A stretch of DNA of 40,397 nucleotides, taken from Candidatus Limnocylindrales bacterium (GTDB taxonomy: Bacteria > Moduliflexota > Moduliflexia > Moduliflexales > JAUQPW01). The notes beneath the pieces are model-generated. The model was given only the letters and a program-made list of their open reading frames with translations. It had not been told where the DNA came from and ran no database searches. The stretch lies in contig DATMBG010000021.1 in assembly GCA_035559535.1 (NCBI GenBank), forward strand, positions 186,001 to 226,397. The letters are read 5' to 3'. Position numbers and translations under genes: made by a program. Numbering within the stretch: position 1 is the first letter of the stretch; every line of letters starts with the position of its first letter. Shown here in pieces: positions 15,931 through 37,789 of this stretch.

Positions 15931-16356
15931 CCTATGCGCCAGGATAAGAGTGAGATCCCTGAGGAGGACCCTTAATGTCAAATATCAAACGAGACGTTTG
16001 ATCCACCGGATATTTAACCTACTAACCTTCCCCCGCTTTGCAGGGGAAGGAACTTTGAAGCGAAGTTCCCTCCCCATCCTATCTTCCTCTAAGCCTCAGC
16101 GGGGCGACCTGTTTCACAGGCCGCTCCTCCGGAGCTTGAAAAATTCTGGATGACTGGATCCCCTGACTTGCATCCTTAGCATTACCCACATTTTTTCATG
16201 TCGAAGGTGTGTCAACCGGGACGGTTGACCTACTAACCTGACCGTTTTAAACCCCATCCTCCCAAATCGAAAAATGTGAATAAAGGTAAGGACTTACGTC
16301 CGGGGCTACCCACGGTTCGCTCCTGACGGGCTTTTCAGCTTAACCTGGCACGTATG
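15931..16356 (+). mobile_element. MITE copy 1, expanded by nested insertions
   Basis: Ends cctatgcgccaggataag ... cttaacctggcacgtatg; internal blocks (ctgtttcacaggccgctcctccggag, tgactggatccc) shared with 36900-37053 and 40191-40344. Confidence 0.75.
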
Positions 16357-16481
16357 CCGAGTTCCCCCTTCTCATAAGAGTATCTTTTTTATTGACTTAA
16401 ATCCCCTTCCCCCCTCTATCCCCCCGCATGCGGGGGGAAGGGGGGTTGGGGGTTAGGTGAGAAAAAACTGCCTTGAAATTT

Positions 16482-17898: not shown

Positions 17899-18250
17899 CT
17901 GTGTAATTTCCCCTCACCCTCCCTTTCCCTCCCCGTGGGCGGAGAGGGAAGCGAGAAGATCTCCGGGCCAGCTCCCGGTGAACCCTCCTCATCCTCCCCG
18001 TGGACGGGAAGGGAAGGGGGAGAGGGGGGTTCACCGGGAGTAAAGGCAGAACCGTTATTCAAATCTAACTTTACAAGGGAGTAGTACACTGTTACCTTAA
18101 TTTTGACCTCATAGGGCTGCTTTCACTCCCCAGCTCCCCTCACCCCCATCCCCCCCCTAGCCCCCCAGTGCCCCCCCTCCGTAGGGGCGGGAGGCCTCCC
18201 GCCCCTACACAGGAGAGGGGCCGGGGGTGAGGGCCACTTAAACGTTAAAC
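17899..18250. repeat. Cluster of REP/MITE-like repeats, including GTAG REP at 18181-18208
   Basis: 18116-18250 matches 36748-36822; 18048-18086 is the reverse complement of 36846-36881; gtaggggcgggaggcctcccgcccctac palindrome. Confidence 0.8.
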
Positions 18251-18254
18251 AAAA

Positions 18255-19391
18255 CTAGGTAAACAATGTAGTAGCAGGTAGGGTCTCTGCACTCCAGTTT
18301 TTTAAAAGAACTTCCACACCGGCTAAGACATCTTCTACCGAGATGGAATCTATTTTTCTGTTCTCCTTTCGAATGGCCAGGTAGATATCCCCAATCGGTT
18401 TCCATTGGGCTGGATTAGACGGCCCATACAAGCCGATAAGGGGAACCTTTTGGGAAGCAGCGATATGGAGGGCCCCGGTATCGTTTCCGATATACAGATC
18501 GAAATTTCGCACCAGGCCGGCCAGGGTCCTCAAGGTAGTGGGAGGAGATATAAAAACGCTCTCCTTATTTTTAACCTGCTCTTTGAGGGTTTCCACCAAT
18601 TTTTCTTCACCGGGTCCGCGGGTTAAGATAATCTTAGCTCCATAAAGCTCCACCAGCGCATCGCATAAGTGGGCATATTTATCCAGGGGCCATCTCTTAT
18701 TCTCAAACCGGGCCCCCAAATGGACTCCGATTAACCAACGGGCGGGAGGGATAGATAAAGATTGTAACATCTGTTGACCTTGAAGGATCTCTGCTTCGGT
18801 CAAAACCAGGATATAACTCTTATCGGTTGTATCGGCACCGATATACCGAACCACATCCAGGTTAGAATCTACCTGACTTTTTTCATTTTGGGTATCCACA
18901 GGTACGGCCAGGTTATAGAAAAGATCTCCGGGTCCGGGACCGTACTTTTTATACATTGATCCGAGTCGATATTTCGCACCACTTAGCCAGGCGATAAGGT
19001 CACTGGAGAAAGACCTGGAGACCGTATTGAGTACCACAGCCAGATCGTAGGGACGGATACGCCTGATAAAAGTTAAAAATGTGGAAAGACTCCAGTGTTG
19101 AAGTTGTCGATAATACACAAGGACCTCATCTATATAAGGATTATTGATCAGGATCTCCTGGGTCAGTTGGCGAACCACGACGGTTATATAAGCTTGAGGG
19201 AATCTCTCTCGCAAGGCTCTGAGGGCCGGGGTTGCAATCAAGAGATCACCGATTTGATCGTGCTGACGCACGACGAGAATCCGTTTAATCCGGGAATAAT
19301 CTATCTCTTCCGGCCTGAGAGGGGTCGGAGTAAAGAACAGGCCAACCCCCCTTAGAAGGAGATCCCTGAAAAATCTCTCCAAACCTCTCAA
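18255..19391 (-). CDS. Glycosyltransferase family 9 (LPS heptosyltransferase-like)
   Basis: ILVVRQHDQIGDLLIATP, KRWP, YIGNDTGALHIAA, GLYGPS. Confidence 0.92.
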   Translation of the reverse strand: MRGLERFFRDLLLRGVGLFFTPTPLRPEEIDYSRIKRILVVRQHDQIGDLLIATPALRALRERFPQAYITVVVRQLTQEILINNPYIDEVLVYYRQLQHWSLSTFLTFIRRIRPYDLAVVLNTVSRSFSSDLIAWLSGAKYRLGSMYKKYGPGPGDLFYNLAVPVDTQNEKSQVDSNLDVVRYIGADTTDKSYILVLTEAEILQGQQMLQSLSIPPARWLIGVHLGARFENKRWPLDKYAHLCDALVELYGAKIILTRGPGEEKLVETLKEQVKNKESVFISPPTTLRTLAGLVRNFDLYIGNDTGALHIAASQKVPLIGLYGPSNPAQWKPIGDIYLAIRKENRKIDSISVEDVLAGVEVLLKNWSAETLPATTLFT

Positions 19392-26407: not shown

Positions 26408-26498
26408 TTTATCCAACTTCTTACCGATTTCCTATCCTTGCCTTTCGTAAGGGAAAAACTTCAACTGTCCGGACAAAAAATTAAAAATTTTTACCCTC

Positions 26499-26519
26499 AA
26501 TCCAGACAGGGGCGGACTC
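26499..26519. promoter_or_regulatory. Putative WYL operator box 1
   Basis: aaTCCagacaggggcGGActc; near-identical to 35733-35753. Confidence 0.55.
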
Positions 26520-26572
26520 AACGGGTGTCAGGGTCTGGTGAGAGCCAGATTCGGAGACCTAAGTTAGGGTTG

Positions 26573-27592
26573 ATGTTAAAAGAAACAAATCATTCAAACT
26601 TCAATTATGGAGCGACCAAGTTTGCACGCATGATCCGCCTCATGTCGGAGGTCAAGACCAACCCTTATCAACGACCGGAGGAGCTTTGGCGACTGTTGGG
26701 GATCAAGCGTTCGCAGTTTTTTGAAGATCGGAAGGTACTGGCCCAATTCGGTTTTGAATTCAAATATGATCGGCGCGAGAAGAGGTATAAGATAATCCGG
26801 GACATTTTCATTCCTGTGCTGGACCTTACGGTAACCGAAGTGATCAGTCTGGCCATGGCCGTACGTCAGCTTTCGGCGGCCGGGGATCATACCCTTGTTT
26901 GGGATGCCGTACAGGCGATTCGAAAGATTGCGGCCAATGCTCCTGAAGCGGCGAGTGAGATGCTTTCCTATGCGATTAACCAGAAAACCCTCAAAGATAC
27001 GTTCAAAGTCAGCCCAAAATGGATGAATCTGCTCTGGCAAGCCCGGCAGAATCGCCATCGTGTCAGGATACTCTATGAGGATTACTCCCGAGGGCAAAAA
27101 CGTTGGTTTCTGGCCGATATTTACATGATTTACTTCAAAGGTCGAGCCTTGTATGTAGATGCCTATTTACCCGGCGAGGATCGTATCGCCATGTTAAGGG
27201 CCAGCCGGATCAAGCAGGTGGAGCTACTTTCGGAAGAGTTTCAGGTGCATCCCGACTATAACTTTCATGAACGTCACCGTTACAGCTTTCGGGTCATGAT
27301 CAGTGAAAGCAAACCCGTACGGGTACGAATTCGCTTCGATCCGAAAATTGCCCCTTACATTCGTGAAGCCTACTGGCATGAATCCCAGCAGATTCTTGGA
27401 TGCGACGATGGAGGGTTGATTCTGAGTTTGACCGTAGCCGAGCCGCAGGAAGTGTTGTGGTATCTGGTCTTTCCTTGGGGTGAAGGGGCCGAGATCCTCG
27501 AGCCTGAGTCGCTACGCCAGGAAGCGGCCAGAGTTGCGCTTCAGGTGTATAAGCGGTATACAGAAAAAAAAGATCCCGGATTTGAAACCTGA
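26573..27592 (+). CDS. WYL-domain transcriptional regulator (wHTH-WYL-WCX, PafC/YafY-like)
   Basis: HTH (EELWRLLGIKRSQFFEDRKVL), YFKGRALYVDAY, LRASRIK, YIREAYWHESQ, WGEGAEILEPESLR; ATG 26573 supported by the homologous relic at 35807. Confidence 0.9.
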   Translation: MLKETNHSNFNYGATKFARMIRLMSEVKTNPYQRPEELWRLLGIKRSQFFEDRKVLAQFGFEFKYDRREKRYKIIRDIFIPVLDLTVTEVISLAMAVRQLSAAGDHTLVWDAVQAIRKIAANAPEAASEMLSYAINQKTLKDTFKVSPKWMNLLWQARQNRHRVRILYEDYSRGQKRWFLADIYMIYFKGRALYVDAYLPGEDRIAMLRASRIKQVELLSEEFQVHPDYNFHERHRYSFRVMISESKPVRVRIRFDPKIAPYIREAYWHESQQILGCDDGGLILSLTVAEPQEVLWYLVFPWGEGAEILEPESLRQEAARVALQVYKRYTEKKDPGFET

Positions 27593-27656: not shown

Positions 27657-28205
27657 ATGTCCAGACAGGATATCAAAACGATTATTTTTTTAACCTTTCT
27701 ATTGCTTGCCATCCCGGGCTGTGGAGACGATGACGATCATAATGACCTGACACCCAATGTAGCAGGGGTTTGGAATCTCAGCGCGAATCTGACAAGTAAC
27801 AGTTGTCCTGTTCCGGCCACGCCCATTGTTGTGGATCAATTTTCCATAACCCAAAATGGGAACGCACTAACCGCCGTGGATACAAGCGGAGCGCCTTATA
27901 CCGGAAGCATTACAGGTAACACCATCAGGTTATCGCTGGCGACTCCCACGACCGAAACAGAGGATTCCTGTACCCTCACAGGGGATATCGATGTCCTGGC
28001 GTTTGTGAACCCTGGGGAGGTAAATCCCAGCCGGGCCACCGGGACCCTCAGTTTTCTCTTTACCTCGAGTGGGAGCTGTGCACTTCCGATAAACTGTCGG
28101 GTGGACCACAGTTTAACCATGGAACGGGCAGGAGTGGCCAAGGAGCAGCCGTCGGGTTATCCGGGTTTAAGGAAAGTGTTAGGAGAGATGATGAACAGGT
28201 TTTAA
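27657..28205 (+). CDS. Hypothetical beta-rich lipoprotein
   Basis: Lipobox IPGC followed by GDDDD, NVAGVWNL; GGAGG RBS. Confidence 0.8.
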   Translation: MSRQDIKTIIFLTFLLLAIPGCGDDDDHNDLTPNVAGVWNLSANLTSNSCPVPATPIVVDQFSITQNGNALTAVDTSGAPYTGSITGNTIRLSLATPTTETEDSCTLTGDIDVLAFVNPGEVNPSRATGTLSFLFTSSGSCALPINCRVDHSLTMERAGVAKEQPSGYPGLRKVLGEMMNRF

Positions 28206-28377: not shown

Positions 28378-28598
28378 GTTGCTCACTCTACTCTACAGCT
28401 ACTTGCTCGGATTTTTAATGTGTCACTTTCAGCGATGCGTTGTCGGTTGCCTGCGCTTGGGTTTTTGAAAGATTCTGAAAAAGAAGGGCAACCGGGTCTA
28501 TTTGAGTAGAAGTGTGATAGGTAAGTCATGAAGGCTCAAAGGTTATCGTTACAAATACCGTGAATCGATACTCCATGATCATAAAGGAGGGTGATGAG

Positions 28599-28958
28599 AT
28601 GAGTTTACAGGAACAGATTACAAAAAGCAAAGAAATAAAAAGAGTCGCCGGCTACCTGAGAAATGTGTTTGAAGTAGAAATTGCCTATGATATCTTAGAT
28701 AAAATTGCCAAGGCACGAAAAATCGAAGATTTTTGCGAAGGTCTGTATACCGCTCTAAGACTTCAGGAAAAGACTCAGAGAGAAAAAAAGAAAGAAGGTA
28801 TTAACAACATTTATATCCCGTCGGGAGATGATCTTCAGAAGGTTGTGGAGCTTGCTAAGCAAAACCTTAAGGAAACATCGAGGTATTTAGCTTCTCTAGC
28901 CTTGGCATATCCAAGTAAAAGAACTGAGAAAAAGGAGGAATCGATATCATGTTTTTAA
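28599..28958 (+). CDS. csa5: Type I-A Cascade small subunit Csa5/Cas11a
   Basis: AYDILDKIAKARKIEDFCEGLYTALRL, IPSGDDL; first gene of the cas operon; RBS AAGGAGG. Confidence 0.82.
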   Translation: MSLQEQITKSKEIKRVAGYLRNVFEVEIAYDILDKIAKARKIEDFCEGLYTALRLQEKTQREKKKEGINNIYIPSGDDLQKVVELAKQNLKETSRYLASLALAYPSKRTEKKEESISCF

Positions 28959-30292
28959 GGATTACAGGAAGAATTTTTCTGAATGTTCAGTCGATGAACG
29001 CTCAGGGTGGCGGTGGAACTAATTATATTGAGATAACTAAAGTTCCTATCATTTTAAAATCCAATGGGAACTACAAACCTTGTGAGGTCCCTGCTATTTC
29101 TGGCAACATGATCAAACATTATCACTTTGTGGGGTTTACAGAAAGATTTAAGCAGACTCCTTACGCCCAAAATCTTACGTGGGATGCATCCAGGGCTTAC
29201 GTTGCTTTAAGATTTGATCGCGGTAAAACAGCCAAAAAAGCAAATGGACAAGAGATTTCCCTGCAATCAGAAGGAGAAATACTAAGCCATTTTGCAGATG
29301 CCGATCTTCATGGCTTTTTAGCCCCAGATACCCAGTGTCGAAGGGAATCTATTTTGAAGTTCTCTTTCTTTGTTCCAGTAGAAGAGTTCGTTGAAGAGGT
29401 TGAGGTAAAGGCTGTGGTTCATAACAGAGTTGATGTAGATGAAGAGGGTAAGATACCCCCTAGAGAAGAAGGTGCCATGATGTTCTTTAAACGAGAGTAT
29501 ACCTCTGCGCCATATGGTTTCCTTATGAGCTTTGATCTACCTTACAGCGGGCTAACTCTCGCAAGCATGAACTCACCAAACGTACTGGGAGTACTCGAAC
29601 GCCAATCAAGGGTTAAATCAGCCATCTTAGGGCTTATGGACCTGTTATCTGGAAGGGCGGGCGCAAGTTTATCCCGGGCTTTTCCCGCTGCAAAGGTTGA
29701 AGAGTTAATCGTGGCTTCTTCCGAAGAGCCGCTTCCGGCCCTGGTTCACGGGTTTTACAAAGACTATGCGGAACAGAGCGCCAAAATCCTGAAGGCTTAT
29801 AAGAGTCTTTCGAGTACTGATATTACTGTAAACCTCTATGCCAGGAATTCTCAAAGAAAATCTGAACTTGAGCAGATGCTTAAGGATAGCCAGAGTAGCT
29901 TAGAAGTCAAGGTTTTTGATGACTTCATAAGCCTTTTATCCGATGCAGAGAAGAGTGCTGAGGAGGTAATTGCGAGTATGGCCATGAAAGAGCTTAAAGA
30001 AATACAAGAAAAGGTTTCTCTTCAATCAAAAGAAGAAATCAAAAAGGTTTTAGAGAACTGGCAAAATCTATTGGCTAAAGCCCAAGAGATTTATCCAGCA
30101 ATATGGGAAGAGTATAACCTGCTTGAACAATCGATGGAATCTGAAGATAAGGATTTGAAAAAACTTGCTGATGAGCTTAGGGAAGCAAACTCCACGGAAA
30201 AAAGAACTGAATTGATTAAGGCTCTGAGGGAAGGAATCGAAAAGAAAAAAAACAAAAAGAAGGAGGAAGAAGGTGAAGGCTCTGGCTCTTAG
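28949..30292 (+). CDS. cas7: Type I-A Cas7 (Csa2/DevR) with a C-terminal helical extension
   Basis: NAQGGGGTNYIEITK, EVPAISGNMIKH, DADLHGFLAP, HNRVDVDE, REY, PALVHGFY. Confidence 0.93.
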   Translation: MFLRITGRIFLNVQSMNAQGGGGTNYIEITKVPIILKSNGNYKPCEVPAISGNMIKHYHFVGFTERFKQTPYAQNLTWDASRAYVALRFDRGKTAKKANGQEISLQSEGEILSHFADADLHGFLAPDTQCRRESILKFSFFVPVEEFVEEVEVKAVVHNRVDVDEEGKIPPREEGAMMFFKREYTSAPYGFLMSFDLPYSGLTLASMNSPNVLGVLERQSRVKSAILGLMDLLSGRAGASLSRAFPAAKVEELIVASSEEPLPALVHGFYKDYAEQSAKILKAYKSLSSTDITVNLYARNSQRKSELEQMLKDSQSSLEVKVFDDFISLLSDAEKSAEEVIASMAMKELKEIQEKVSLQSKEEIKKVLENWQNLLAKAQEIYPAIWEEYNLLEQSMESEDKDLKKLADELREANSTEKRTELIKALREGIEKKKNKKKEEEGEGSGS

Positions 30293-31133
30293 AGTACGAG
30301 GGCCCTTGTACTCCTCAAAATCTGCCCCCAGGGAACTGCTGTCTTATCAGGTGGCTATCTGTCCGCCTTTGCCCTTACCTGCTGCACTTCTAGGTGCTTT
30401 GATCCGAGCCTATGCCCGGCTTGATAGGAGTGTGTCAAAGGATAAGGTGGATAAAGCTGCGGTAGAATACCTTGAAAGGTTCAAGAAGTATGGCATCTCA
30501 GCTACATGTAAGCTTTCCTCAGATTCCTCTCTTATCAAAGGAGCCATATTACTAAAAAGATTTAGAACTCTAGAAGCAACGCCCCCAAAGGGAGAAGAAA
30601 AAAGTGATGCCATGCGCCGTGAGTACATTTTCCATAATAAACTGGATATCTTCTATCTCTTTGATTCACCACCTGATGACTTCAAAAAGATAGAGCAGGC
30701 CGGGTATCTGATTGACAGGATGGGTGATACAGAATCTTTAATTACCGTTGAAGAGATTATCACCGTCAATAATCAGAACCCCGTTAATGATCGAGAAGTT
30801 GAGATCAATACCGTTACTCCCTTTGACCTTTTGGATGAGCATCCGTCTAATGGGATGATTTGGAACGGGCTGGCTGAGTCAATATATCCAGGTAGGGAAG
30901 CAAGGCCAGGAGCATTTGTGTTACCCCTTGAAACAAGGGTTTCAAAGGGATCTGAGTATTTCGTTGGATGTTCGTTCCAAGCTAAAATAAAAGAGGGCGT
31001 TAACGTTCACAGCTTCGAGTTTAAAGGTGAAACGATTACAGTGATAAGTTGGGCAGCTCAACAAATTACTTATAAGACCGAGCAAAGAAAGAAAACAAAA
31101 GATGGAAGAGGAAAAGGTAAAAGAAACTTTTAA
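30273..31133 (+). CDS. cas5: Type I-A Cas5a
   Basis: SYQV..PPLPLPAALLGAL, LLKRFRTLE, EKSDAMRREY, IDRMGDTESL. Confidence 0.9.
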   Translation: MKALALRVRGPLYSSKSAPRELLSYQVAICPPLPLPAALLGALIRAYARLDRSVSKDKVDKAAVEYLERFKKYGISATCKLSSDSSLIKGAILLKRFRTLEATPPKGEEKSDAMRREYIFHNKLDIFYLFDSPPDDFKKIEQAGYLIDRMGDTESLITVEEIITVNNQNPVNDREVEINTVTPFDLLDEHPSNGMIWNGLAESIYPGREARPGAFVLPLETRVSKGSEYFVGCSFQAKIKEGVNVHSFEFKGETITVISWAAQQITYKTEQRKKTKDGRGKGKRNF

Positions 31134-32523
31134 GAGGATTATCGAAAAAGAACCCTACGATTATCAAGAGAGAGCATTCCGAGAAATCCTCAATCTCTCT
31201 GATTCGGGTGGGCTGGCCTTAATAGAAGCACCTACCGCGTCGGGTAAAACAGAAGCGGTGGTATTTCCTTATCTAACCCAACACGACATAAAGAGCTTTC
31301 CACTCGCCAGGAGATTGATTTACGTTCTTCCAACTCGCGCACTGGTTAACGCCCAAGCCCTGAGGATAAAAGGGTATGCTCAAAAGCTTGGCCTAAATCT
31401 GGTTGTTAACATAGATCATGGTGCTGTTCAATCTCCCACACCAATGTTCTATGGTGATGTTGTCCTTACGACGTGGGACGCTTTTCTCTATGGATATGCA
31501 GCTCAAAGGACCATAGGGACCAGGTTAACCATCCCTGCCGGGAATTTGGCTCTTTCCATGTTAGTCTTTGATGAGGTTCAGATGTATCAGGATTGGGACT
31601 TCTATACACCCAGGCTGATGGGATCTATTTTAAACCACTTTAAAGGCCCTGGAATTCCCATTGTGTTTATGACGGCCACACTACCTGCACGGCTAAAGGA
31701 AATGTTGGGTTTAGGGGAAGCTGTTCTAATCTCATCTCTTAGCTCTGACGCTAAAAAACCCCTTCGTGGAACTGTCCATGTTGAAATTGAAAAGGAAAAA
31801 GACATCTTAGACGTTATAGCTAAAAATAGAACCACCCTGGAAGAGACTATAAAAAGACAGGAGAAAGTGCTGATTGTAACCAATACGGTAAAAAAGGCCG
31901 TTGAAGTTTGGGAGAAAGTTAAAGAAATCGATTCAGAAGCAATTTTGCTTCATTCGCGGCTGGTCAATCAGGCAAGAAGAGAAAGAGAGCAACAACTTAT
32001 CAACGGGCACTTTAAAGTGTTAGTTGCAACCCAGCTGGTAGAGTCAGGTCTTGATATACCGAAAATAACTTTGGGTATTGTGGAAGCAGCTCCACCCGAT
32101 GCTCTTATCCAACGAATCGGTAGGGTTGCAAGAAGAGAAAGCGAGCATGGGCAGGTTTTAGTTGTGATACCAAGAGAAAATGGGAAAGTTCACTTTAGAC
32201 CATACTTGTCAGTCAGTGAAGATGATTTGAAGGGATTGAAGGCTGAGATTGAGAAATTAGACGCAAAAATCAAGAAATTAAAAGAAAAAAATGAAAAGGC
32301 TGATAAAATTAAAAAACAACACAAGGAGCTTACACGGCAGCGTGAAGAGCTTAAACGTATTTACAAAAAATTTTATACTTTGGAAAATTTCTGGGCTGAC
32401 TTGAACAGGGACAGCGTGTCTGAAGCATTAAATAATCTGGAAGCGTGTCGAAAACTCCTGGATAATTTCTATGATCAATTCATTGTTGAGGAAGAAGAAA
32501 ATGGCGAAGAGAAAGCAGAGTAA
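31102..32523 (+). CDS. cas3: Cas3' SF2 helicase, N-terminal part
   Basis: PYDYQ, APTASGKTE, VLPTRAL, FDEVQ, MTAT, LLHSRL, VATQLVESGLD, LIQRIGRVAR. Confidence 0.92.
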   Translation: MEEEKVKETFKRIIEKEPYDYQERAFREILNLSDSGGLALIEAPTASGKTEAVVFPYLTQHDIKSFPLARRLIYVLPTRALVNAQALRIKGYAQKLGLNLVVNIDHGAVQSPTPMFYGDVVLTTWDAFLYGYAAQRTIGTRLTIPAGNLALSMLVFDEVQMYQDWDFYTPRLMGSILNHFKGPGIPIVFMTATLPARLKEMLGLGEAVLISSLSSDAKKPLRGTVHVEIEKEKDILDVIAKNRTTLEETIKRQEKVLIVTNTVKKAVEVWEKVKEIDSEAILLHSRLVNQARREREQQLINGHFKVLVATQLVESGLDIPKITLGIVEAAPPDALIQRIGRVARRESEHGQVLVVIPRENGKVHFRPYLSVSEDDLKGLKAEIEKLDAKIKKLKEKNEKADKIKKQHKELTRQREELKRIYKKFYTLENFWADLNRDSVSEALNNLEACRKLLDNFYDQFIVEEEENGEEKAE

Positions 32524-33028
32524 AATAAAAGAAGAAACTAAAAAATCAATCGTGGAAGAAATTAAAAAGCGTGAGAACGAGATACAGAGAATACTTGCTG
32601 CTGCAGAGGCTTACTTTAGCGAGTTCTCCCTCTTCTCCCTTCCACCCGAGATTGAACTCAGAGCGAGACCGGAGCTTTATGTCACGGCGGTTTGGGTCCC
32701 CTCCTGTGAAGAATTCAGAGAGCTAAGAGAACAGATTGAACAATTCAGCAAAGGTTCAGACAACTCAAAAGATGTGGAAGCTTCGCCCCAGGAGATTCGA
32801 AAACTGTTTGAAGATTACTCCTTCAATTTACCTCTCCGACAGGCACATGCCGTTTTAAAGTGGGACGACAAAAAATTCATTGTCCTTGAAGTTAGCCAAA
32901 CCTTGAAGAGGGAAGGGAAAATCGAGGTCAGGATAAGAAAACAAGACTATCTATCAGGTCTTACGACCGCTTTGGTCAAAGAGTATGATTCCGAAATGGG
33001 GTTAATAGGAAATCATGAGAGAGAATAA
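32501..33028 (+). CDS. Cas3' C-terminal domain as a separate overlapping ORF (or frameshifted continuation)
   Basis: YFSEFSLFSLPPEIELRARPELYV and terminal EYDSEMGL resemble the I-A Cas3' C-terminus; +1 frame relative to upstream ORF; GAGGAAG before ATG 32501. Confidence 0.72.
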   Translation: MAKRKQSKIKEETKKSIVEEIKKRENEIQRILAAAEAYFSEFSLFSLPPEIELRARPELYVTAVWVPSCEEFRELREQIEQFSKGSDNSKDVEASPQEIRKLFEDYSFNLPLRQAHAVLKWDDKKFIVLEVSQTLKREGKIEVRIRKQDYLSGLTTALVKEYDSEMGLIGNHERE

Positions 33029-33848
33029 TACCTCATTTAAATGTCCCCATAACTACGGCTGCACAGGTCTTGTAGACTGTAAACTTCCTTCCTTCTATGA
33101 GGGGAAGAATGGAAGCAGAGAACCCAAGGAATGCTTTGTCCAGCACATAGAACTTTTGCTCAATACCTGGATAAATCGGCTGGAATTAAAATACTTACCT
33201 TCTATTCTCAGGGTCTGTAAAACAATAGACCCACTGTTGGATCCAGATACCCTAAACAGCTTAATAAAGGCTGTGATGATTTTTCATGATGTGGGAAAAT
33301 TAACCGACGTTTATAAAGCTGGTAGGGGTATAGGGGACTTTCGCCATGAGTTTGTTAGCTCCTATGTTTTCAACTTGGTTCTTGAAAAGCTTTCGACCAA
33401 GTTTCACTCTGAGTTAAAAACGGCGGCGATAGGCGCTGTGCTCCTACATCATGAACCTATCCTTATGGGACAGGTTGGTCAAATTCATGAGGAGAAACTT
33501 ACGACCACTGAAATTTGGAGACGCCTAAATAGTGTGGATAAAGAGAAAACCTTACTTCTTGAACGAACAGTTGAAGCTATCAACAAACTTGTAAAAAAGT
33601 ACTGTGGATGGGATGTGGAAATACCGCGAGAGATAGTGATCAAGGAATTGGCAGGTTTTCTTCAACGACTCCTCACTGGTTCGAGACACCTGGGTAAGAG
33701 AGAAGATAGAATAAAAAGGAGAATTTTAGTAGGTGTTTTTTTATCACCCCTTGTTTTATGTGATTATACGGCTGCAGTTAATTTCAGAAACGAAGACAAA
33801 CAAATAACCGCTTTTTGGGAAGTAGCAAAATCAGAGGTGGAGTTATGA
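33015..33848 (+). CDS. cas3'': Cas3'' HD nuclease
   Basis: QH, FHDVGKL, FRHE, LLHHE, LCDY metal ligands. Confidence 0.9.
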   Translation: MRENNTSFKCPHNYGCTGLVDCKLPSFYEGKNGSREPKECFVQHIELLLNTWINRLELKYLPSILRVCKTIDPLLDPDTLNSLIKAVMIFHDVGKLTDVYKAGRGIGDFRHEFVSSYVFNLVLEKLSTKFHSELKTAAIGAVLLHHEPILMGQVGQIHEEKLTTTEIWRRLNSVDKEKTLLLERTVEAINKLVKKYCGWDVEIPREIVIKELAGFLQRLLTGSRHLGKREDRIKRRILVGVFLSPLVLCDYTAAVNFRNEDKQITAFWEVAKSEVEL

Positions 33849-34897
33849 AGCTATACACTCCCGGTTTTGGAGAAATTCCAGATATGTACATAACCTATGG
33901 TCTTTTTGAGGGAGCAGTAAGGGGATTACCTTACTCAGAGGTAAAACTCTTTCCGCAAGGACAAAAATTCATTTTGGAAATCGAAGCCGATGAAAGCGAT
34001 ATTTCCAAAGGTCTGATAAGAGGCGTAAAAGATGCTATTATAGAAATGCTAGAACTCTTTCAATCAACATGGAAAATCGGATATACATCCTTTGGAGGAG
34101 CTATAGATAGGCTTGATTTAGGAAGGAATTATAAGTCTGTTCCTGGAAAGTTAAAGACTTTTTTGAAAAAATCCTGGGATCTTTCAAGTAGTTATAAAGA
34201 AGCTCATCACAAGTGCAGTAAAAAAACGACCCCTTATCTCCCTATTACTCCACAACTGGGCACGAAGCGTTCTTTTTTATATGAGACTGTAGAACGAAAA
34301 AACTACTACCAAATCCTTGGAGAAAATTGCTGTTTTCCCCTCTGTTGGGTTGGCTTACATTATTATAGCTCTTTCTATACAACAGGAGATTCAACCACTT
34401 TTTGCACTTTAATTCCAACATCTTTGTTAGATAAAACTGACTTACTTCCAGTTAAAGATATCTCAACTCGTGTTCAATACCACAAAGAGTCGAGGAAAGT
34501 CCAGCTAAACTTGTTTTCCTTGGCACTTTATTTGCTTTCAAAAGGTGAGACATTATTTGCATTGAATAAGCCATGGAAATTATGTATCTATAACATTTCT
34601 ATTAGTGGAAAGGCCCCTTCAATAAGAAGCTACACAATAATTCAACCAAAAAGATTTCTCGAGTTTATTTCAGTAGTAAAATCCTCCTCGCCAAACTGGC
34701 TAAGACTCTTAGATAGTCTAATAAAAGAAGACAAGCAAGAATCTATTTCACTTATTGCAGAATCTCTTTTGTTCAACAATACAAATAGCTTATACGATGC
34801 CCTGAAGCAAGTCGAAAGAAGCTTAGGCAAAGAAGAAAAACAGTTCCTCGACGAGGCTATAGTAGATGCTCTCTACAAAACTATTTGGAGTTTGTAA
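33845..34897 (+). CDS. cas8a: Type I-A large subunit Cas8a (Csa4-like)
   Basis: MKLYTPGFGEIPDMYITYGL, YLPITPQLG, PLCWVGLHYY; ~350 aa; ATGA overlap with cas3''; operon position. Confidence 0.75.
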   Translation: MKLYTPGFGEIPDMYITYGLFEGAVRGLPYSEVKLFPQGQKFILEIEADESDISKGLIRGVKDAIIEMLELFQSTWKIGYTSFGGAIDRLDLGRNYKSVPGKLKTFLKKSWDLSSSYKEAHHKCSKKTTPYLPITPQLGTKRSFLYETVERKNYYQILGENCCFPLCWVGLHYYSSFYTTGDSTTFCTLIPTSLLDKTDLLPVKDISTRVQYHKESRKVQLNLFSLALYLLSKGETLFALNKPWKLCIYNISISGKAPSIRSYTIIQPKRFLEFISVVKSSSPNWLRLLDSLIKEDKQESISLIAESLLFNNTNSLYDALKQVERSLGKEEKQFLDEAIVDALYKTIWSL

Positions 34898-34936: not shown

Positions 34937-35734
34937 ATGCCCATTGCAACCGTTCTTCATAGTATCCTTTCCGAAGATCTGGACGCTTCAAAAATCAGCG
35001 GCGAAGCTCTCCATGGACTCTTTTTTGCCATCCTTGCCCAGAAGGACAAAAGACTGGCCTGGCAACTCCACAAAGCAGCCGGAACAAAGCCTTTCACCCT
35101 GGCCTTCCTGAACCGGGGAAAAAAGAGCAAATTTAAACCCGGTGAAGAACTGAGAATGAGGGTGACTTTACTCGACGATTCGCTTTTCATGAAACTTGCC
35201 GATGCCTTTATGAATCCGCAAATGGAACTCGAACTTCAGAACGCCAGAATAATTCCCACGATGATCAACCTCTCTGCCACAGACAGGGGCCTGTGGACAG
35301 GACAACAGAAATGGGAAGAAATCTACGATTCGGCAGGGGAAGGTATCGAGATAGTCCTGCAGTTTGTAACCCCCACGACTTTTCGGCAAAGAGATATGGA
35401 CGTTCCCCTCCCCATTCCCAAACTGGTGTTCGGCAGCTATCTAAAGAGATGGAAGGAGTTCTCTCCTATTCCCCTTCACCCGGATTTACAAACTGTAGTG
35501 GAAGAACGCATCGCTGTCTTCGAACCACACATTAAACCCGCTCCGTTTTTTACAGGAAAAGTATGGGTACACGGATTTATCGGTCGAAGCCGGTTTAAGA
35601 TCATGGACGATGTCAGCCCGGAACTCGTGAAACAGATTAATATCCTTGCCGACTTTGCCTTTTATTCAGGAACTGGTTACAAGACTACGTATGGAATGGG
35701 AATGACCAGAAAGTTAAAAATTTTTTATATTTAG
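34937..35734 (+). CDS. cas6: Cas6 crRNA-processing endoribonuclease
   Basis: LHGLFF, KPFTL, FVTPTTFRQ, PLPIPKLVFGSYLKRW, Gly-rich loop YSGTGYKTTYGMG. Confidence 0.93.
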   Translation: MPIATVLHSILSEDLDASKISGEALHGLFFAILAQKDKRLAWQLHKAAGTKPFTLAFLNRGKKSKFKPGEELRMRVTLLDDSLFMKLADAFMNPQMELELQNARIIPTMINLSATDRGLWTGQQKWEEIYDSAGEGIEIVLQFVTPTTFRQRDMDVPLPIPKLVFGSYLKRWKEFSPIPLHPDLQTVVEERIAVFEPHIKPAPFFTGKVWVHGFIGRSRFKIMDDVSPELVKQINILADFAFYSGTGYKTTYGMGMTRKLKIFYI

Positions 35735-35925
35735 TCCAGACAAGAGCGGACTCGGGTAGGATCAAGATCTTGTAACAGTTGGACTTACAGAAATAGGTTA
35801 AAATTAATGATAAAACCACTGTGGATCAATTTTCCATAACCTAAAGTGGGAGCATCCTTTCCGCAATCTCACAGGGCTGAAACCTCAGATATGGAAGGGA
35901 CAGAGAAATAACCTTCAAACTTCCA
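35704..35925 (+). pseudogene. Decayed, internally deleted copy of the WYL promoter/start fused to a lipoprotein gene fragment
   Basis: 35735-35814 aligns ungapped to 26501-26580 (51/80 by hand). 35820-35851 matches 27830-27861 (30/32) and translates VDQFSIT*SGSILSAI versus VDQFSITQNGNALTAV. Confidence 0.75.
35733..35753. promoter_or_regulatory. Putative WYL operator box 2
   Basis: AGTCC-N10-GGACT palindrome; 17/19 identical to box 1. Confidence 0.55.
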
Positions 35926-36503: not shown

Positions 36504-36747
36504 GTCCGGTACTCTCTTACAGGAATATCAAATGAGTTTGCTTTAAGTGACCTCTACTTATATTAAGTTTAGATCTCTGCAAATTTCGATCGGTACCAGG
36601 ATCTCCCTTTTTAACCCTCTTACCAGAAGTATATATAACCTTGAAATCTTTTTAAGCATGCCCCAAACTTAGTTGGAGTAAGAAGTGACTCTCAGTTAAA
36701 AGAACTCAAAAACTAATACATAGTCCATTTAATATTGGCTTTAGAAA

Positions 36748-36881
36748 GCTGCCTTCACTCCCCAGCTCCCCTCTTCCGCAGCATGGGAGAGGGGCCGGGG
36801 GTGAGGGTCACTTAAACATTAAGCAAAATTAAAGTAACAAAGCATTACTACCTTGTAAAGTTAGATTTGAATAATCGTTCT
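36748..36881. repeat. REP/MITE-like repeats shared with 18048-18250
   Basis: gctgccttcactccccagctcccct...ggagaggggccgggggtgagg; tactaccttgtaaagttagatttgaataa. Confidence 0.75.
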
Positions 36882-36899
36882 ACCCCCACCCCCAGCCTC

Positions 36900-37053
36900 C
36901 ATACGCGCCAGGATAAGAAGTCAGGCCCCGGCGGGGCGATCTGTTTCACAGGCCGCTCCTCCGGAGTCTGAATGACTGGATCCCCCGATCTATATCGGTG
37001 GCTACCCACAGTTCGCCCCTGATGGGGTTTTTCAGCTTAATCTGGCGTGTATG
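36900..37053 (+). mobile_element. MITE copy 2 (154 bp)
   Basis: Imperfect 18-bp TIRs catacgcgccaggataag / cttaatctggcgtgtatg; no ORF. Confidence 0.8.
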
Positions 37054-37300
37054 CCCCGGTCCTTCTCCCGAAGCTTTTGTGTAATTTTCCACCCTTACCT
37101 CCCCTAATCCCTCGGCACCAGGTTAAGGCACCTCCACCCGACTCCTCCCACTTTCGATTTGAGAGACTAGGACTCAAAACGGCTTGGCTAGGCTTTGGGG
37201 GGTTGGTTACTCTTTTTGCAAAAGAAGGATCTTGCCTTCCCCAAGGAGTTCGGTCCATTTCGCCGTTTAGCCGATGGACTCATTGAACCCTCTCTTAATC

Positions 37301-37396
37301 TCCGAAATGAAAAAGTAGGTAATGGTTAGAACTTACGTCGAGGGCTACCAACCTTTCGCCCTTGACGGGGTTTTTCAGCTTAACCTGATGTGTATG
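37301..37396 (+). mobile_element. Partial MITE (right end)
   Basis: Matches 16261-16356 (acttacgtc..ggctacc..ttttcagcttaacctg..gtatg). Confidence 0.65.
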
Positions 37397-37789
37397 GGGG
37401 GTTAGGAGAGTATCTAGACCCCCGGGTCTAACCCTTAACTTGGCCCATAGGGGGTAGCTCGTTGTGGTAGCCCTATTTAAGGGCGATCCTGGATGGTCGC
37501 CCTGCAAGGTTATATAACACTTCTATGATTTAGTATAAAATGATGAATATCATCGGTATTGACAAGCTTGCTTTTAGAGAGGAAGATAACCGGGTAGATG
37601 GGGTTCCGGTGGAAGCGGAAAATTCAACCTAACCTCGATGGGGGATTTCACACATAAAATTAACCCAGGAATGCATTTCGATCCGGAACCTAAGATATTT
37701 TGTTAATTCAAGGCATACTGGTAAGGTCTGCAAGTCTTAAAAGAGCGCCTGTACCGGGCCGGTTATCCTTCAAAAAGGAGGTTTTACTT

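Follow-up and report, generated by a model that had tools for sequence, protein, structure and literature searches.

Cas7 is the multi-copy backbone subunit of Cascade, and its backbones are viewed as made of compact units that are all alike. The type I-A cas7a gene found in a window of 40,397 nucleotides (nt) of bacterial DNA, the whole stretch analysed here, raises the question of what a long additional C-terminal segment represents on such a subunit, and where it came from. The gene (28949-30292, + strand) encodes 447 amino acids (aa), as an earlier sequence-only reading of the window had stated, and its product ends KKKNKKKEEEGEGSGS. The answer favoured here, with moderate confidence, is that the segment, referred to below as the tail, is a genuine, lineage-specific and independently folding helical module, derived from a small cistron that was fused in frame to cas7.

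The first 343 residues (28949-29977, + strand) make up a family-typical Cas7a/Csa2 core. TIGR02583, the model of type I-A Cas7/Csa2, matches aa 2-282 with 241.6 bits against a cut-off of 212.6, the Pfam family DevR (PF01905) matches aa 5-277 with 205.5 bits against a cut-off of 23.8, and the PADLOC match of the product to Cas7a has an E value of 2.6e-72. A full-length AlphaFold2 model (mean predicted local distance difference test score, pLDDT, 85.9) finds its best Foldseek match in Cas7a of the P. furiosus I-A Cascade (7tr6_I, E 1.7e-32, 44% identity, 349 columns), other matches being 4reg (E 5e-27) and 3ps0_C (E 5.3e-15). By profile, by fold, i.e. an RNA recognition motif (RRM) palm with insertions and a C-terminal subdomain, and by operon context, the protein belongs to type I-A Cas7a. 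Binding of the CRISPR RNA (crRNA) and a multi-copy role in the helical backbone are assumed for it from family membership. In an alignment with 15 homologues, the protein's own C-terminal subdomain extends to about aa 343 and the ends of the homologues fall opposite its residues ~335-346; the Cas7a part, which the sequence-only reading had let end near aa 335, thus runs slightly further.

The tail module covers aa 344-447 and, with the stop codon, positions 29978-30292 of the + strand. An extension of about 110 aa had been proposed; the extension itself stands, while its length is reduced to about 103-104 aa (aa 344/345-447, nt 29978-30289). The cas7 frame, kept in relatives, is the sole open frame of the region, several stops being present in the other five. 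The earlier description of a charged, helical tail rich in glutamate and lysine (E/K) is borne out both by a composition count and by AlphaFold2, which places helices throughout. E and K together account for 38.5% of the tail, against 14.9% of the core, and in a ranking of the 2974 mechanical open reading frames (ORFs) of at least 250 aa of the same genome, according to the E/K fraction of their C-terminal 100 aa, cas7 takes the top position (0.39, the median being 0.13). The tail has a net charge of -4, with aa 381-400 net acidic, and a Lys-rich patch, KKKNKKK, can be read in the sequence at aa 432-438 (30242-30262, + strand). The last tail codons (KEEEGEG) also contain the Shine-Dalgarno (SD) sequence of cas5, GGAGG at 30262-30266, and its GTG start at 30273 (together 30262-30275, + strand); for this reason, the end of the tail is under constraint in its DNA sequence too. 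A search of the genome with the tail, which also found the query itself as a positive control, detected no paralogue. The tail is real coding sequence, a lineage-specific helical module on the C-terminus of a type I-A Cas7a.

The same fused tail is carried by P0199, a full-length protein of 438 aa from a Joint Genome Institute (JGI) metagenome. Between the two proteins, 277 of 344 core positions (80.5%) and 53 of 94 aligned tail positions (56%) are identical; the tail alignment contains no internal gap, and 23 of the 27 hydrophobic tail positions stay hydrophobic. The best-kept stretch of the region is the junction peptide A337-L349, identical at 12 of 13 positions. A fragment of 201 aa, P0073, covers query residues 238-437 at 68% identity, running from core through tail in one frame. 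P0073 and the N-terminal fragment P0071 are adjacent partial proteins on one contig of a metagenome-assembled genome at NCBI, labelled Archaeoglobaceae archaeon by its depositor, and correspond to the same sequence as P0199. A third relative is represented by P0198, a protein of 79 aa that is identical to the query in 62 of the 73 tail positions aligned and has the same EEEGEGSGS end, and by short contigs of an independent sequencing run, X2, with about 94% DNA identity. These contigs carry an in-frame insertion of 18 nt behind 30254, which agrees with the longer Lys patch of P0198. A further run, X3, gave no match, and no RNA run was among the holders listed. In a tree built by a quick search on the core only (53 rows), the query and P0199 form a pair with a Shimodaira-Hasegawa approximate likelihood ratio (SH-aLRT) of 100 and a stem of 0.39, their sister group being unresolved. 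A recent read-through, which would be missing from close homologues, had been considered in the sequence-only reading; since the tail is present in the closest homologues, P0199 and the P0198/X2 relative, this explanation does not apply. The tail is kept within a small clade, and both a read-through and an assembly error can be set aside as its source.

The rarity of the tail emerges from several searches. A survey of homologue lengths, which the sequence-only reading had suggested, confirmed the ordinary size of type I-A Cas7 proteins, 247-366 aa in all of the 69 homologues detected by a word-based search, none of which carries the tail. An exhaustive search of 1.84 billion representatives produced 131 matches, only one of which extends beyond query aa 366: this is P0073, a piece of the P0199 sequence. 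Seven of the 131 are at least 400 aa long, all with 26-30% identity, and in three of these (P0121, P0139 and P0170) the extra length is due to internal insertions, located before the conserved last helix. The tail is likewise absent from the 37 complete Cas7 ORFs of 40 related loci, the longest of which measure 407 and 385 aa (three ORFs cut by contig ends were left out). When residues following the HGFYxDY motif were counted, the query had 174 and P0199 165, the next values being 134 and 116 and the median 62; this count includes the 88 proteins with the pattern, 111 of 199 having been left out for lack of a pattern match.

Searches with the tail itself gave a similar picture. Among proteins of 245-783 aa, a word-based search returned only the query, and among shorter proteins only P0198. 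No match to the tail was found in the 4 genomes behind related loci, nor in 92 and then 96 genomes from the family and class of G061, the genome containing the related locus L011. A search of 60 relatives with the whole Cas7 revealed none with the tail, and one ordinary Cas7 of 332 aa in G032. A metagenome scan with P0199 gave, among the matches listed, one locus, 46% identical. The cas7 and cas5 genes abut or overlap in all seven related loci inspected; consequently, the tail's DNA, roughly 310 nt, is to be regarded as an insertion rather than as read-through into a spacer. Literature searches yielded no description of such a Cas7a tail. The "C-terminal extension" of Csa2 mentioned in PMC3150331 is the part that follows the RRM core in ordinary members of the family, and differs from the tail described here.

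In the full-length AlphaFold2 model the last core helix continues into the tail, forming a predicted long helix, or stalk, over aa 326-396 (29924-30136, + strand; pLDDT 82-97). It is followed by helices at 401-412 and 416-442, with tail pLDDT values of 82-93 up to aa 440, in a model whose alignment rows did not cover the tail. When the tail was modelled alone, from three sequences, the mean pLDDT was 78.8, with the highest values at aa 366-435 (85-92); here the long helix is broken at aa 358-360 and a three-helix bundle is predicted at aa ~380-445 (380-397, 401-412 and 416-445; 30086-30283, + strand). The tail is therefore predicted to consist of a helical stalk, a small three-helix knob, the patch of Lys residues at aa 432-438 and an acidic terminus containing Gly and Ser.

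The tail belongs to no known family among those searched. The best E values were 0.016 against Pfam, where all matches fell below the cut-offs, 0.017 against PHROGs and 0.077 against PADLOC, with no usable match in either, and 0.3 against PDB sequences. Neighbours in the ESM Atlas were generic helical proteins, with feature scores of 0.75-0.76, below the noise level of the tool. The Foldseek comparison that the sequence-only reading had recommended yielded generic helical bundles only, with a best E value of 1.9 against the PDB, and VIA-align, at a best Z of 7.1, matched generic three-helix bundles to residues 55-120 of the model. No model for the tail exists in Pfam, NCBIfam, PADLOC or PHROGs, so that it is not a common, already annotated feature of Cas7a, as had been considered at the outset.

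A clue to the origin of the tail comes from the junction. At the point where ordinary Cas7a homologues end, an internal SD sequence, AGGAGGT, can be read at 29961-29967 (+ strand) in the codons E338-E339-V340; after 10 nt it is followed by an in-frame ATG at 29978-29980 (+ strand), the codon of M344, and a second ATG, that of M346, lies at 29984-29986 (+ strand). An in-frame start with a ribosome-binding site at working distance, as expected of a nested cistron, is thus present at M344. The 3' end of the 16S rRNA, on contig C26 of the genome, carries the usual CCTCC. Only four sites of the form GGAGG-N4-12-start occur on the + strand between 28400 and 35800, namely the junction site and the starts of csa5, cas7 and cas5. 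The spacer from GGAGG to the ATG of M344 is 11 nt, that of the cas7 start 10 nt, and of 422 sites at likely true starts in this genome 41 have a spacer of 10 nt and 26 one of 11 nt. In-frame internal SD-start sites occur genome-wide at 2.1e-4 per codon, a rate derived from 2398 ORFs of at least 300 aa; by an estimate made post hoc, cas7 would be expected to hold about 0.08 such sites, and the stretch within 5 codons of the junction about 0.002. At the protein level, P0199 keeps the junction as AEEVIA-x-MAMKEL, M-A-M included.

The presence of an SD sequence and an in-frame ATG where an ordinary Cas7a stops is the reason for reading the tail as a fused small cistron. A small cistron between cas7 and cas5 would have been fused in frame to cas7, and the junction would still bear its former SD and ATG. 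The tail is, on this sequence evidence, probably a small cistron that cas7 captured, and ribosomes may still start on it separately at M344, in which case the module of about 12 kDa would also be made free. Each Cas7a backbone subunit would display a helical stalk with a three-helix tip and a flexible, Lys-rich and acidic end; the tail would occur several times per complex because Cas7 is established as multi-copy, which is the one basis for this number. A protein-protein accessory role is most likely, the module binding either itself, on a neighbouring subunit or in its free form, or a different Cas component. The sequence-only reading had likewise proposed display in many copies along the complex, possibly for docking, oligomerisation or anti-CRISPR shielding. 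That the tail arose by fusion, is translated separately, is displayed multivalently or binds anything at all is inferred from these data. In a bolder version, considered rather unlikely, cas7a would be a two-product gene: the free helical protein of about 12 kDa made from M344 would enter Cascade by forming bundles with the copies tethered to the backbone. It would be a new type of Cascade accessory or "second small subunit", encoded inside cas7 instead of the large-subunit gene, and might also be coupled to the E/K-rich arm that the split Cas3' of the same operon carries.

Several observations weigh against the favoured reading. The spacer of 11 nt exceeds the genome optimum of 5-8 nt, and two consecutive GAG codons, in a region rich in E, can generate an SD sequence by chance. 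The conservation of the SD and ATG is seen at the protein level only, as EEV and MAM: no DNA of P0199 or of the P0198 relative spans the junction, which also lies outside the contigs from run X2. None of the seven related loci has an independent small gene separating cas7 from cas5, and neither the word-based search nor that of shorter proteins returned a stand-alone homologue of the tail; hence, the supposed donor cistron has not been seen. Finally, the tail is carried by three sequences only.

These points lend some weight to a plain lineage-specific elongation of the C-terminus, a spacer, a solubility tail or a neutral addition, in which the SD-ATG pair would be a coincidence of E-E-V and Met codons and there would be neither a separate product nor a specific partner. 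E/K tails recur on other Cas7 proteins (those of loci L039, 385 aa, and L040, 407 aa, and P0092 and P0111), short charged ends are found on the Cas7 of P0035, P0039 and L027, the protein searches found no stand-alone homologue, and the tail evolves faster than the core, as the identities to P0199 indicate. Such an elongation is nevertheless held to be fairly unlikely, as the SD-ATG pair lies at the exact domain boundary and has no other internal counterpart within the operon, no stretch of the region is better conserved than the junction, and the hydrophobic pattern and gapless conservation favour a folded, selected domain over a neutral tail. An artefact, by which an assembly or sequencing error removed the stop codon between cas7 and a small ORF, would account for a canonical SD and ATG exactly at the junction, and the only run containing the whole stretch is the probable source of this assembly. 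The same fused frame, however, is found in P0199, which has a different source, and in the fragment P0073 from core aa 238 through the tail, and for the source contig, covered to a depth of about 29, the listing shows no variant, which makes an artefact very improbable.

Two further explanations concern function. The tail might be a docking site for Cas3', tethering the helicase to the backbone through an E/K-rich C-terminal coiled-coil add-on at Cas3' aa 369-473 (~105 aa; 32206-32520, + strand). E and K make up 34.3% of this add-on and 14.7% of aa 1-368, and when the C-termini of the genome's 2974 ORFs are ranked by E/K content, the Cas7 tail is followed directly, in second place, by Cas3' of the same operon, the richness being confined to the add-ons on otherwise ordinary cores (14.7-14.9%). 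The two segments share a local motif, SEDxDLKxL, with 18 of 43 positions identical, and the Cas3' coil has a net basic portion, the tail being net acidic at aa 381-400. Against docking, the similarity of the add-ons is not significant (E 2.5), a single Cas3' per complex would face several tails, which is unparsimonious, and the related locus L009 encodes the same split Cas3' with a C-terminal add-on, yet a tail-less Cas7 of 361 aa, from which it follows that the tail and the split Cas3' do not strictly co-occur. Docking on Cas3' is therefore judged improbable. A relationship between the Cas7 tail and the Cas3' C-terminus was also considered and rejected on the same E value of 2.5; the add-on itself has a weak match to the coiled-coil family DUF7201 (E 2e-06). 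Slightly less probable again is a contact with nucleic acid, in which the KKKNKKK patch on its helical arm would touch DNA or crRNA, for example a flanking duplex or the displaced strand. Basic ends do recur on subunits, since Cas5 in this operon (31075-31133) ends KKTKDGRGKGKRNF, Cas5 of L009 ends in RRRRR and Csa5 of locus L027 in KKKKEGE; distant Cas7 tails end in K-rich runs, and the Lys patch varies in length by in-frame indels, yet is retained. However, the overall charge of the tail is negative (-4), EEEGE comes right after the patch, the patch is weak in P0199 (EEAEKKKE), and the final codons of the tail overlap the cas5 SD and start, so that part of this sequence may be kept for that purpose.

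The tailed Cas7a is encoded within a complete type I-A interference operon, identified on the + strand in the order csa5-cas7-cas5-cas3'-orf185-cas3''-cas8a2-cas6. The first gene, csa5 (cas11a; 28599-28958), matches TIGR01878 with an E value of 2.6e-06, under the curated cut-off, and aligns to the gene 5' of cas7 in seven related loci. Its mechanical ORF begins with GTG at 28560, and an ATG at 28599 has GGAGG 8 nt 5' of it; the ATG is the more likely start, giving a product of 119 aa. After cas7a come cas5a (30273-31133; TIGR01874, 83 bits against a cut-off of 23), the cas3' helicase gene (31102-32523; 473 aa, TIGR01587 with 169.7 bits), orf185 (32471-33028; 185 aa), cas3'', encoding the HD protein (33015-33848; TIGR01596), cas8a2/csa4 (33815-34897; PF09703/TIGR01914) and cas6 (34937-35734; TIGR01877). 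The cas8a2 match also falls under the curated cut-off, yet both this gene and csa5 occupy the expected positions in the operon. The product of orf185 is the split-off C-terminal domain of Cas3', to judge by its alignment to the C-terminal region of archaeal Cas3' proteins that form a single chain of 532-588 aa (FSLPPE..ELRARPELY..YD..G). The same split is found in L009, from an uncultured bacterium, where the two parts measure 469 and 198 aa and the gene order is that of the present operon. A gene for a regulator with WYL and WCX domains (26438-27592, + strand; PF13280, PF25583) lies 5' of the operon, and at the corresponding position L009 has an ORF of 324 aa.

Other genes of the window encode TolB, a YbgF/CpoB-like protein, MsbA, a lipopolysaccharide heptosyltransferase and a sigma-54 activator, on account of which the host is taken to be a Gram-negative bacterium. 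Its genome is 5.6 Mb in size and its phylum is represented by only 9 genomes in the collection. A search with the whole Cas7 gave no match in the genome of the same genus or in 7 other genomes of the phylum, and the relatives of this Cas7 are nearly all archaeal; on these grounds, horizontal acquisition of the operon is most likely.

A lipoprotein gene (27657-28205) is located 5' of the operon, and a piece of it, 27830-27874, recurs just 3' of cas6 at 35820-35864, with 94% identity over 32 nt and an in-frame stop. This repeat may have been left behind, as a scar, when insertion or recombination brought the operon in. Two ORFs of 182 aa flanking the operon were considered as possible paralogues and rejected on comparison. 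The window, whose end is that of the contig, contains neither a CRISPR array nor adaptation genes. The sole array found in the genome, with 18 repeats of 37 nt whose repeat ends ATTGAAAC, spans positions 3-1260 of contig C16, at the contig edge and adjoining hypF/D/E, and the one cas1 lies on contig C27 (43688-44560). Several families of intergenic direct repeats of 38-67 nt, 73-90% identical, link two parts of the window, with copies both near 16-18 kb (16093-16365 and 18082-18273) and near 36.7-37.4 kb (36714-37405), and C-rich runs resembling CCCCTC occur at several intergenic sites. An Rfam scan of the window gave no match.

Among known type I-A systems, Cas7a of P. furiosus (PF0642; Cascade structure 7tr6, and 4reg) and Sulfolobus Csa2 (3ps0) share the core, aa 1-343, with the protein described here, at 44% identity to 7tr6_I; the solved Cas7a/Csa2 chains, of 274-336 residues, align to the core only, and none has the tail of 104 aa. 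The order of csa5, cas7, cas5, cas3', cas3'', cas8a2 and cas6 in the operon is shared as well. Unlike the archaeal systems, the present one is hosted by a Gram-negative bacterium and has its Cas3' split in two, and the locus thus represents an archaeal-type I-A system with a split Cas3' in a bacterium.

Among Cas7 proteins, the nearest parallel is a distant DevR/Csa2-like clade (L039, L040, P0092, P0111), in which an amphipathic E/K helix (EEEIKxLEEEI) and a basic end follow the last helix. These tails add only about 30-45 residues to cores 27-32% identical, and the Cas7 proteins of L039 (2894-4051) and L040 (656-1879) also show an acidic core insertion of about 25-30 aa. A relationship with the present tail was rejected, with an hhalign probability of 1.65%, and the two are probably independent acquisitions. 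Generic antiparallel three-helix bundles, such as staphylococcal SCIN, protein A-type domains and designed mini-binders, resemble aa ~380-445 in topology, with VIA Z scores of 5.3-7.1, below the meaningful level for helical bundles, and a root-mean-square deviation of about 2-3 A over 50-65 residues; the sequences are unrelated, and the likeness reflects a common arrangement that says nothing on function.

Type I-A Cascade is already in use for diagnostics and genome editing, and a folded add-on on every backbone subunit, if true, would alter the outer surface of the complex. The tail could also reveal a new route to the recruitment of partners or to the stabilisation of the filament. What is new here is a conserved but rare tail together with the SD and ATG at its junction, the junction signal being the most interesting and most testable point.

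This signal invites comparison with Cas11, which in types I-B, I-C and I-D is reported to be translated in frame from an internal start in cas8 or cas10d (10.1101/2020.04.18.045682). A relation of the tail to small subunits of the Cas11/Csa5 type was examined and rejected on sequence: hhalign of the tail alignment against 8 Csa5 sequences gave a probability of 0.7%, BLASTP against the Csa5 of the same operon gave an E value of 1.1, and no Pfam threshold was reached. No Cas11-type chain appears among the 50 best fold matches of VIA or the matches listed by Foldseek, comparisons in which helical bundles match poorly and unspecifically. As with Cas11, an internal in-frame SD and ATG lie near the 3' part of a Cascade gene, and the candidate product would be small, about 12 kDa, all-helical and present a second time as the C-terminal portion of the larger protein. 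Unlike Cas11, the host gene is cas7 rather than that of the large subunit, and the locus already has csa5/cas11a. The junction suggests that nested or fused small cistrons, known for Cas11 in cas8 and cas10d, may occur in cas7 as well, which matters for the annotation of these genes and for their heterologous expression.

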